Source: Escherichia phage mEp043. Taken from it: a stretch of 42,880 nt of DNA. The position numbers and the translations under genes were made by a program. The number at the start of each line of letters is the position of its first letter. Positions within the stretch are counted from its first letter, which is position 1. The notes beneath the pieces were generated by a model. The model was not told the origin of the DNA, did not search any database, and worked only from the letters and a program-made list of their open reading frames with translations. The stretch lies in sequence record PV340537; one strand, given 5' to 3'. Positions 19,321 through 19,773 of the stretch are shown piece by piece.

Positions 19321-19367
19321 CCCCGCAAGCGGATAATATGGTTTTTATCCCCTGCGGGGTATAAATA
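19321..19367 (+). promoter_or_regulatory. Imperfect palindrome plus TATAAAT -10-like element upstream of small ORF 19419
   Basis: CCCCGCAAGCGGATAA ... TTATCCCCTGCGGGG inverted repeat followed by TATAAAT. Confidence 0.4.
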
Positions 19368-19418
19368 GGACTTGCAAATGCGTGGTTTATCATTTTGAAG
19401 CCAATGACAGGAGTGGGT

Positions 19419-19577
19419 ATGACACTTGAAGAACGAATTACAGCTTTAGAAAAGGCAGTCACATGCATTGTGAATGAAAAGCAAGAGGACACAACTGCCT
19501 TTGTTGATAAAATTATTCAGGAGATGCGTCAGTCCTCAGTATTTTCGCAGCTTCTAGAAAGGCCTCGTGAAGATTAG
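19419..19577 (+). CDS. Small alpha-helical hypothetical protein (52 aa)
   Basis: ATG with GGAG SD; 3' end overlaps convergent minus-strand ORF by 65 nt. Confidence 0.45.
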   Translation: MTLEERITALEKAVTCIVNEKQEDTTAFVDKIIQEMRQSSVFSQLLERPRED

Positions 19578-19773
19578 GGATGTTTTTAACACGTTCAGGA
19601 TCAAGTTTTTCCTGGACAAATTTTGTCAACCCATCATATAAATCTTTGTTCGGGTACAGCTCATTAACTGCTTTAATTAGTGCTCCAAAAGCAAGCTGAT
19701 TTGCTATTTTTTGTACGGCTAATTCTTTTTCTAACTGCTCAACCTTTTCTTTTAAACCAAAACCTTCTGACAT
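19513..19773 (-). CDS. Hypothetical alpha-helical protein (86 aa), minus strand (moron-like orientation)
   Basis: ATG with AAGGA SD; opposite to late transcription as for lambda bor-region morons; no similarity to Bor. Confidence 0.5.
   Translation of the reverse strand: MSEGFGLKEKVEQLEKELAVQKIANQLAFGALIKAVNELYPNKDLYDGLTKFVQEKLDPERVKNIPNLHEAFLEAAKILRTDASPE

Follow-up and report, generated by a model that had tools for sequence, protein, structure and literature searches.

A convergent small-gene pair left of cos in Escherichia phage mEp043 as a probable copy of a moron cassette with a shared structured leader

Background

Morons give temperate phages most of their known lysogenic-conversion, exclusion and virulence functions, and each of them is usually treated singly. 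Two described loci are closest to the one studied here: in phage HK022 both gp22 and gp23 are annotated as 'moron gene product', and in phage ES18 the annotation at genes 24 and 25 reads 'possible moron'. Prophage RNAs are also known at such places. STnc6030 of BTP1 is antisense to the late operon, is made from the repressed prophage and excludes superinfecting phage (PMC7067206), and the anti-small RNAs AsxR and AgvB are prophage small RNAs at late-operon moron sites (PMC4104026). Here we describe a convergent pair of small open reading frames (ORFs), one of 52 and one of 86 amino acids (aa), in a stretch of 42,880 nucleotides (nt) from Escherichia phage mEp043 (record PV340537), which is called the window below. 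Phages mEp213 and mEp043 c-1 (genus Aguilavirus), which are lambdoid coliphages, are 100% identical to the window here.

The analysis suggests that the pair is probably one copy of a discrete moron cassette in a lambdoid late operon, and that expression of its cargo, the 86-aa gene, would be opposed to late expression. The leader and the cassette architecture that the pair shares with other loci are a more interesting result than the pair itself.

Results and discussion

The convergent gene pair

A preliminary description of this DNA, made from its letters and a list of its ORFs, had placed a 52-aa ORF on the plus strand (19419-19577) and an 86-aa ORF on the minus strand (19513-19773), overlapping tail-to-tail by 65 nt. 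Both sets of coordinates were correct and the overlap was confirmed at 19513-19577. The GGAG Shine-Dalgarno (SD) sequence of the 52-aa ORF is found at 19410-19413, 5 nt before the ATG, and the AAGGA SD of the 86-aa ORF at 19785-19781, 7 nt before its ATG. The convergent, mutually antisense layout is also real, and it represents a conserved design, as a late-strand ORF runs into the 3' end of the cargo gene in other cassettes with the same leader.

The two ORFs were deposited in 2012 as hypothetical proteins (gp69 and gp70 in mEp043, gp71 and gp72 in mEp213, the 52-aa ORF being the first of each pair), and the re-annotation of 2025 retains the 86-aa gene only. Pfam, NCBIfam, PADLOC and the PDB bear out the view that neither protein can be recognised, but each ORF has its own PHROG of unknown function, phrog_28630 for the 52-aa ORF and phrog_21164 for the 86-aa gene. 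Both products are hydrophilic helical proteins, and no membrane-spanning hydrophobic stretch was seen in either sequence.

The 86-aa protein has eight homologue clusters with 66-99% identity, mostly from Enterobacter prophages and all of about 86 aa. In its 65 non-overlapping codons, the pairwise ratio of non-synonymous to synonymous substitution (dN/dS) was 0.09-0.25, with 0.4-0.9 synonymous differences per site. Because homologues of the same length occur in several clusters and dN/dS is low, sequence comparison shows that this ORF is a genuine protein gene under strong purifying selection.

The AlphaFold model of the 86-aa protein is all-helical, with four helices and a predicted local distance difference test (pLDDT) of 69, and a Foldseek search of the model against the PDB returned nothing with an E-value below 3. 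A profile search of PDB sequences gave a weak match to the N-terminal domain of lambda CI (E = 0.0096). This match was dropped as evidence for DNA binding because it is limited to helices 4-5, misses the helix-turn-helix and was not reproduced by the fold search. The N-terminus (MSEGFGLKEK) contains neither a signal peptide nor a lipobox, and no homology to lambda Bor was seen among the Pfam, NCBIfam and PHROGs matches.

A shared structured leader

Upstream of the 86-aa gene, a leader of about 150 nt (19774-19925) extends from its start codon to a terminator on the plus strand, and this leader is better conserved than either ORF. The preliminary description, which ended its locus one base before, had missed this regulatory region. 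At the far end, a predicted intrinsic terminator of the late strand (19903-19925, +; AGCCGC-CATCAC-GCGGCT followed by T6) closes the cassette, and its stem shows compensatory variants (GCCGC/GCGGC versus GCCACC/GGTGGC). When read in the cargo sense, the leader thus starts with an A-run and a GC hairpin, which form a terminator for the opposite (late) strand only.

A putative sigma-70 promoter of the cargo follows at 19856-19884 (-), consisting of a -10 element TAATGT (19856-19861) and a weak -35 element at about 19877-19884. The pattern TAnnnT was present in all 66 distinct leaders, and in 63 of the 66 it stood 5-6 nt upstream of a UUCAGCC block. Promoters for sigma-54, sigma-E, sigma-32 and sigma-28 were also considered and rejected, as the spacings did not fit when compared by eye with the consensus sequences.

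The remaining part is a structured 5' untranslated region (5'UTR) of about 77 nt (19774-19850, -), in which the UUCAGCC block is followed by a hairpin P2 (19822-19843), a variable linker, a hairpin P3 (19790-19811) and the AAGGA SD (19781-19785). P3 is formed by GGAGGGA and UUaCCUC and has an invariant loop, UGGCUGA, which is complementary to the 5' UCAGCC. Both stems were predicted by RNAalifold, and the minimum-energy fold of the window's own sequence uses the UCAGCC/GGCUGA helix. Compensatory changes were observed in five of the seven P3 pairs. In the case of P2, CGUCAGUG/CACUGGCG changes to CGUCCAUG/CAUGGACG in loci that were fetched independently of the leader.

As the motif search had fixed part of P2, a covariance model (R1) was run on loci obtained from the small-ORF pattern or by blastn alone. 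In this independent set the model matched 36 of 41 sources, 95.5% of the cells were paired and none of 500 shuffles reached the observed covariation, in an alignment which is fitted to the model and is therefore biased towards the structure. The window scored 86.2 bits (E = 1e-19; 19772-19854, -). The model was also used to correct the counts, since the strict DNA motif undercounts leaders (variants start with CUCAGCC). U.G and G.U pairs are frequent in P2 and P3 and are valid on the cargo-sense strand only, which argues for an mRNA leader and not for a plus-strand small RNA or a DNA palindrome.

The alternative that the conserved 150 nt is chiefly a plus-strand small RNA of the IsrK/anti-small-RNA type, which ends at 19903-19925 and makes the ORFs secondary, was weighed on the same evidence. 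It would agree with a weak hit of the Rfam family IsrK (19845-19925, +; 17.6 bits, E = 0.35), with the U-tract terminator on that strand and with the convergent small RNAs known at moron sites (PMC4104026). However, the match is far under the gathering threshold of 50 bits for IsrK (RF01394), so identity with IsrK was rejected; nothing reached a gathering threshold of Rfam anywhere in the window, and nothing was found at E <= 1 in five other cassettes. In addition, no plus-strand promoter was seen, the G.U pairs of P2 and P3 become A.C mismatches on the plus strand, and the fixed distance of 75-85 nt to the start codon together with the conserved SD indicates an mRNA leader. We consider the small-RNA alternative quite improbable.

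Two further candidates in the leader were rejected. A mini-ORF within P3 (AUGGCUGAUUACCUCUGA) has a stop codon that is not conserved, and the leader contains GTGGTGG instead of the Chi sequence GCTGGTGG. A limited search of the literature found no description of a leader shared among morons.

Distribution of the cassette and diversity of its cargo

In the 13 loci with homologues of the 86-aa gene, both ORFs stay together while their surroundings change. The flanking holins, endolysins and terminases differ (the small terminase subunits are of HK97, lambda or DUF1441 type), and in two lineages the pair sits between the tail genes M and L. The 86-aa gene is opposite in strand to its neighbours in all 13 loci.

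A blastn search of 5426 complete E. coli genomes also detected the leader without these ORFs, in 148 of them. Each of these copies stands directly upstream of a different opposite-strand gene within the late genes of a prophage. The gene may encode, for instance, a 210-aa protein (ahead of J), a protein with DUF1883 (ahead of the holin gene) or, in strain LF82, a product of 79 aa (between ydfR and the lysozyme gene). A 26-nt motif of the leader occurs in at least 119 IMG/VR contigs, and the leader is present in phages HK022, HK633, ES18, SPN3UB and vB_SosS_Oslo. All fetched loci together gave 84 distinct leader instances, 78 of them with a clear cargo ORF whose start codon is always located 75-85 nt past the motif (77 nt in the window). 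At least 17 unrelated cargo families of 65-210 aa are headed by the leader. Pfam recognises only two of these (as DUF1883 and as an aspartyl-protease-like domain), and PADLOC none of them. The cassettes are antiparallel to the surrounding long ORFs in 73 of the 78 cases, the other five loci being too short to judge, and they occupy the slots Rz|cos, lysis|terminase, M|L, I|J and a position before the tailspike gene.

Some genomes carry two leader cassettes at different late-operon sites. This was observed in our loci L031 (2299-2324 and 4351-4376) and L064, in IMGVR_UViG_2558860447_000004 (L097 and L099) and at two places in Salmonella phage SPN3UB.

In the window the late genes are on the plus strand and the pair sits 0.7-1.3 kb left of cos, in the slot between Rz and cos. 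The published cos overhang of mEp213, GGGCGGCGCGCT (PMC12315714), was found at 20607-20618 (+) as a single occurrence. With a single cos in its interior, the window is in prophage or circular order. We applied the moron definition of Juhala et al. (2000), as summarised in PMC3594210. The pair is extra DNA between otherwise adjacent genes, and its base composition is unlike that of its flanks, with a GC content of 0.34-0.39 over 19500-19900 against 0.47-0.55 on either side and a GC skew that reverses over the minus-strand gene. A predicted terminator of its own, a hairpin with a U-tract, follows the cargo stop codon (19443-19502). The leader lies directly upstream of the cargo, and the antiparallel cargo is met by a converging late-strand ORF, as in the leader-bearing convergent morons. 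The M|L junction of the window itself (33425-33860, +) has no cassette, the gap there being about 50 nt.

The 52-aa ORF and its family

A convergent late-strand ORF whose product starts with MTLEQRVEALEK was observed in 25 of the 78 related cassettes, and at least 36 clusters of this small-protein family were found in public data. The N-terminus is conserved and the remainder variable. In the longer members (66-120 aa), the part free of cargo overlap shows dN/dS of 0.09-0.45 with 0.4-0.8 synonymous differences per site, which indicates that the family is protein-coding. The 52-aa ORF lacks the RPGGVLNAAQ segment of the longer members and is a short family member on which selection is possibly relaxed. 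It returned no PDB match and, the query being too short, a single relative in a search of 1.84 billion representatives.

Whether only the 86-aa gene is functional had to be considered at this point. The 52-aa ORF would then be untranslated or a decaying remnant, held open by the cargo codons and the terminator hairpin. In its 31 non-overlapping codons (codons 1-31) dN/dS is 0.5-0.8, a weak constraint, and synonymous divergence among close haplotypes is 0.10-0.13 compared with 0.4-0.55 in the cargo gene, which implies that the nucleotide sequence is itself constrained. ALEKAV and TAF, the peptide stretches conserved best, map onto the two arms of the terminator hairpin, and within the overlap the cargo frame is better conserved than the 52-aa frame. 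Like the 2025 re-annotation, some gene callers omit the ORF, and the missing RPGGVLNAAQ segment also agrees with decay. On the other side, the 52-aa frame is stop-free in all six haplotypes, one of which comes from Phytobacter, where the 86-aa partner shows 66% identity, whereas the other two frames of the strand contain 2-6 stops each; the chance of a stop-free frame is about 0.09-0.21 per haplotype. A deletion of 15 nt in locus L004 is in frame (five codons), and the ATG and SD are retained although the upstream sequence diverges completely. Longer relatives that do not overlap the cargo show clear selection at the protein level. Because membership in this family tips the balance, we take the 52-aa ORF as coding and regard its being a mere remnant as somewhat unlikely.

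The hairpin in question (AAAGGCAGU...ACUGCCUUU followed by UCU; 19443-19502, -) lies within small-ORF codons 9-28 and is predicted to serve the 86-aa gene as an intrinsic terminator. Four of five haplotypes have it as their dominant fold; z is about -2.9 to -3.1 in three of them and only -0.6 in the window's own sequence, and the deletion of L004 falls in its loop. In longer small ORFs, the DNA of an 'AAQxQAA' peptide motif is a GC-rich predicted cargo terminator (GCGGCC...GGCCGC followed by U4). Placement of the cargo terminator within the late-strand ORF is thus general to these cassettes and accounts for the tail-to-tail overlap.

The preliminary description had compared the arrangement with toxin-antitoxin (TA) systems. 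The type I TA loci txpA/RatA and bsrG/SR4 do have convergent 3' overlaps in prophage DNA, so that each transcript could be the antisense partner of the other, and the present module is mobile and resident in prophages. In such an addiction pair, one product or an antisense RNA would neutralise the other. However, no TA, defence or Pfam family was matched by either protein, and instead of a small hydrophobic toxin with a membrane-spanning stretch, as in type I, both products are hydrophilic and helical and the antisense strand bears a selected ORF family. A type II system does not fit either, since the genes are convergent, Pfam, NCBIfam and PADLOC gave no match and the partners recombine freely. 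Closely related, even near-identical, small ORFs adjoin unrelated cargo families (L027 and L037; L129 and L135), which argues that small ORF and cargo are not a cognate pair. Most cassettes have other late-strand neighbours, and 17 cargo families are too varied for one class of toxin. The TA reading is not supported, and we consider it very improbable.

About two thirds of the leader cassettes are without a MTLEQRVEALEK ORF and adjoin DUF1327/YdfR, phrog_11851 or HK022 gp22 instead. Some phrog_11851 companions carry the N-terminus MTLEQRVE fused on, and these fusions indicate that the late-strand companion genes are mosaics. In loci L105, L087, L154, L155 and L168 this N-terminus is fused in frame to a phrog_11851 body of 111-120 aa; in other phages the phrog_11851-type protein begins with MISYEVEFP.

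The small-ORF family occurs almost always together with the leader cassette. Among 31 loci fetched solely through the DNA pattern of the small ORF, the covariance model found the leader in 26. Two family members looked up by protein also showed the order small gene, convergent cargo, leader, one at an M|L site and one, in a P22-like prophage, before a gene of 983 aa. The small late-strand protein could thus be a late off-switch or self-immunity factor that acts on the leader RNA or on a shared feature of the cargos, by which an induced prophage would escape its own moron product. Besides the co-occurrence, the conserved N-terminus with a variable remainder and the late-strand location without a separate promoter would be in line with such a role, and self-immunity is a need of prophage defence and an open problem noted for STnc6030 (PMC7067206). 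Against it, two thirds of the cassettes do without the small ORF, the protein is acidic and coiled-coil-like with no RNA-binding signature, and a small ORF that merely came along with the inserted DNA would account for the co-occurrence equally well. An off-switch role is in our opinion distinctly unlikely.

The inverted repeat and the left edge of the cassette

The pair had also been credited with its own promoter-like palindrome. The palindrome is real and conserved: an inverted repeat at 19318-19363 has arms at 19318-19336 and 19345-19363 that are 74% complementary, and it consists of two ATCCC-N6-GGGAT-like palindromes with centres 28 bp apart. Such sites are unique to the repeat in the window except for an isolated site with one mismatch at 18424-18439. 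In the lysis|terminase subtype, the ATCC/GGAT half-sites are preserved across four different upstream flanks. The promoter part of the claim was not upheld, as a generic scan found no sigma-70-like promoter at the repeat or between it and the small ORF and the M|L copies of the pair have no repeat. A TATAAA at 19360-65 was rejected because it has neither the -7 T nor a -35 element. As for a phage-repressor operator, the window has no further paired copies and just the isolated site.

The repeat was present in 9 of 51 distinct upstream regions of small ORFs, all of the 86/52-aa subtype. It is absent from L004, L016 and L020. L004 and L020 are the M|L copies, in which the small ORF begins 14 nt past the stop codon of M and must therefore ride on late transcription. 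The small ORF is thus most simply seen as a passenger of late transcription, and the inverted repeat is possibly a protein-binding site or an RNA hairpin pair.

Most small ORFs are preceded by AAGCCGAAAGGCGGGAGA-N5-ATG, a GCC-GAAA-GGC hairpin with a GGGAG SD, in upstream contexts that are otherwise unrelated. The core cassette appears to have its left boundary at this motif. The window contains a degenerate copy, AGCCAATGACAGGAG, which with the GGAG SD of the small ORF forms the left junction at 19402-19413 (+). The hairpin has a GNRA tetraloop, and in L145, L150, L158, L164 and others the motif is preceded variously by tail gene M, a terminator or another gene.

Proposed expression of the cassette

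In a lysogen, the cargo would be transcribed leftward from the TAATGT promoter with a start near 19850, its translation would be controlled by the structured leader, and the transcript would end at the hairpin 19443-19502. The plus-strand terminator at 19903-19925 would block stray rightward transcription into the 155-aa gene, cos and the terminase genes. It is established for lambda that Q-modified RNA polymerase reads through terminators. After induction, late transcription antiterminated by Q would cross the entire cassette rightward and ignore this terminator, and the small ORF would be translated from the late transcript. No plus-strand terminator was predicted between the 52-aa ORF and 19903-19925, so that a plus-strand transcript would be antisense to the entire 86-aa gene. 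Late transcription would run through the cargo gene and over its promoter and would in this way oppose cargo expression. It is plausible that cargo and late genes are expressed in opposition, the one in lysogeny and the other in lytic growth, and the idea of mutually exclusive expression, raised already in the preliminary description, fits the strict antiparallel rule.

A protein that benefits the lysogen, for example by exclusion of other phages or by counter-defence, is the likeliest class for the 86-aa product, yet this is a guess. Its grounds are the hypervariability of the cargo, a small helical protein encoded at classic moron sites, and the analogy with other morons and with STnc6030 (PMC3594210, PMC7067206).

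Several points weigh against the proposed moron cassette with opposed expression. The transcription start, the function of the terminators and the opposition between lysogeny and lytic growth are all inferred from sequence. The -35 element is weak, and the generic sigma-70 scan called no minus-strand promoter. For neither protein did the PDB, Foldseek and profile searches yield a relative, by fold or by sequence, that would give a function, and the proposal assigns no role to the inverted repeat at 19318-19363. The weak constraint on the 52-aa codons and the position of the conserved peptide stretches on the hairpin arms count here as well, since conservation of the 52-aa version could be partly at the nucleotide level. 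Finally, as two thirds of the cassettes have no MTLEQRVEALEK ORF, the small ORF is not essential to the design.

A wider proposal can be put forward tentatively, with less confidence than we have in the moron cassette itself. The unit of about 150 nt, composed of a promoter, a pseudoknot-capable 5'UTR and an opposite-facing terminator, may be an undescribed and widespread phage expression module. Together with the left junction (the GCC-GAAA-GGC hairpin, the SD and the MTLEQRVEALEK codons), it might delimit swappable cassettes that are exchanged by short homology, in an integron-like manner with no integrase, so that hypervariable small lysogeny-expressed proteins would be swapped among enterobacterial temperate phages at a number of late-operon sites. 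The leader might couple translation to a host or phage factor such as CsrA. The apex of P3 (AGGGAUGG; 19798-19811, -) and the SD region UAAGGAA (19779-19786, -) resemble the two-site GGA layout of CsrA-repressed leaders.

Many small genes at varied late-operon sites of E. coli, Salmonella and Enterobacter phages, the HK022 and ES18 morons among them, share one regulatory chassis made of a structured leader, an opposite-facing terminator and, frequently, a late-strand companion ORF. The leader motif and the covariance model give a handle for collecting dozens of candidate lysogeny-expressed proteins, and the leader itself, as a defined RNA element, makes a search for its regulator possible. mEp213 and HK022, which are easy K-12 phages, are natural systems in which to ask whether accessory genes of the prophage are silenced by convergent late transcription after induction.

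Genes and hairpins next to the pair

On the plus strand, the window encodes a holin (17908-18231), an endolysin (18215-18691) and Rz (18688-19125) to the left of the pair, and the terminase genes from about 20.7 kb. In the 2025 record of mEp213, Q is located about 0.4 kb upstream of the holin gene. Within Rz, in the +1 frame, a 63-aa ORF (18881-19072, +) with the lipobox LLVVSAC resembles an Rz1 o-spanin; it is unlisted in the three GenBank records examined. A hydrophobic 50-aa ORF (19113-19265, +) overlaps the end of Rz. It belongs to phrog_11822, is the counterpart of Sf6 'gene 65', and is annotated in mEp043 (gp68) and not in mEp213. A weak hairpin follows at about 19283-19312.

A long near-perfect hairpin (GUGAGCCUGGGCAAACCG...CGGCGGCUUUGCC...CAGGCUCAC) was observed within 19926-20038 (+), with -41 kcal/mol and z = -2.05. 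It is placed between the cassette terminator and the SD of the 155-aa gene (20039-20506), the last gene before cos. Enterobacter loci L005-7 and L011-13 retain the stretch 19926-20038 as far as the start codon of the downstream gene, which is a different one there.

Comparison with known systems

The mEp213 pair joins a kind of moron that is already recognised, represented by HK022 gp22/gp23 and ES18 genes 24/25. In HK022, the leader is located upstream of gp23 ('srb protein'), with 85% identity by blastn and 89.8 bits with the covariance model. The cargo gp23 is oriented against the late genes, and the late-strand gp22 runs towards it, with an 81-nt overlap at the 3' end of gp23. The HK022 locus differs in its slot, which is between tail genes I and J and not between Rz and cos, and in its cargo, which is of another family; gp22 is unrelated to the 52-aa ORF, and there is no inverted repeat.

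In the case of ES18, the leader (82.8 bits) heads gene 25, which is convergent with the late-strand gene 24. The depositors placed a putative gene 24 terminator beyond the gene 25 promoter and a gene 25 terminator inside gene 24. These annotated terminator positions are those that were inferred independently for the mEp213 cassette. On the other hand, the ES18 slot is M|L, the partner is DUF1327/YdfR and not a MTLEQRVEALEK protein, and the 95-aa cargo is of another family.

Lambda bor, an opposite-strand moron, occupies the same Rz-cos slot. It is an independent transcription unit, as the mEp213 cassette is proposed to be, and shares with it the lower GC content and the strand opposite to the late genes. 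The mEp213 cassette differs from it by the shared structured leader, the outward-facing late-strand terminator and the companion late-strand ORF.

With type I TA loci such as txpA/RatA and bsrG/SR4, the pair shares tail-to-tail overlapping transcripts. In contrast to them, it has no small hydrophobic toxin, its partner strand carries a conserved ORF and its partners are not cognate. STnc6030 and AsxR/AgvB are similar in being oriented against the late operon at moron sites. They are non-coding RNAs, whereas the cassette consists of an mRNA leader and a protein gene, and no sequence or Rfam relationship was found between them.

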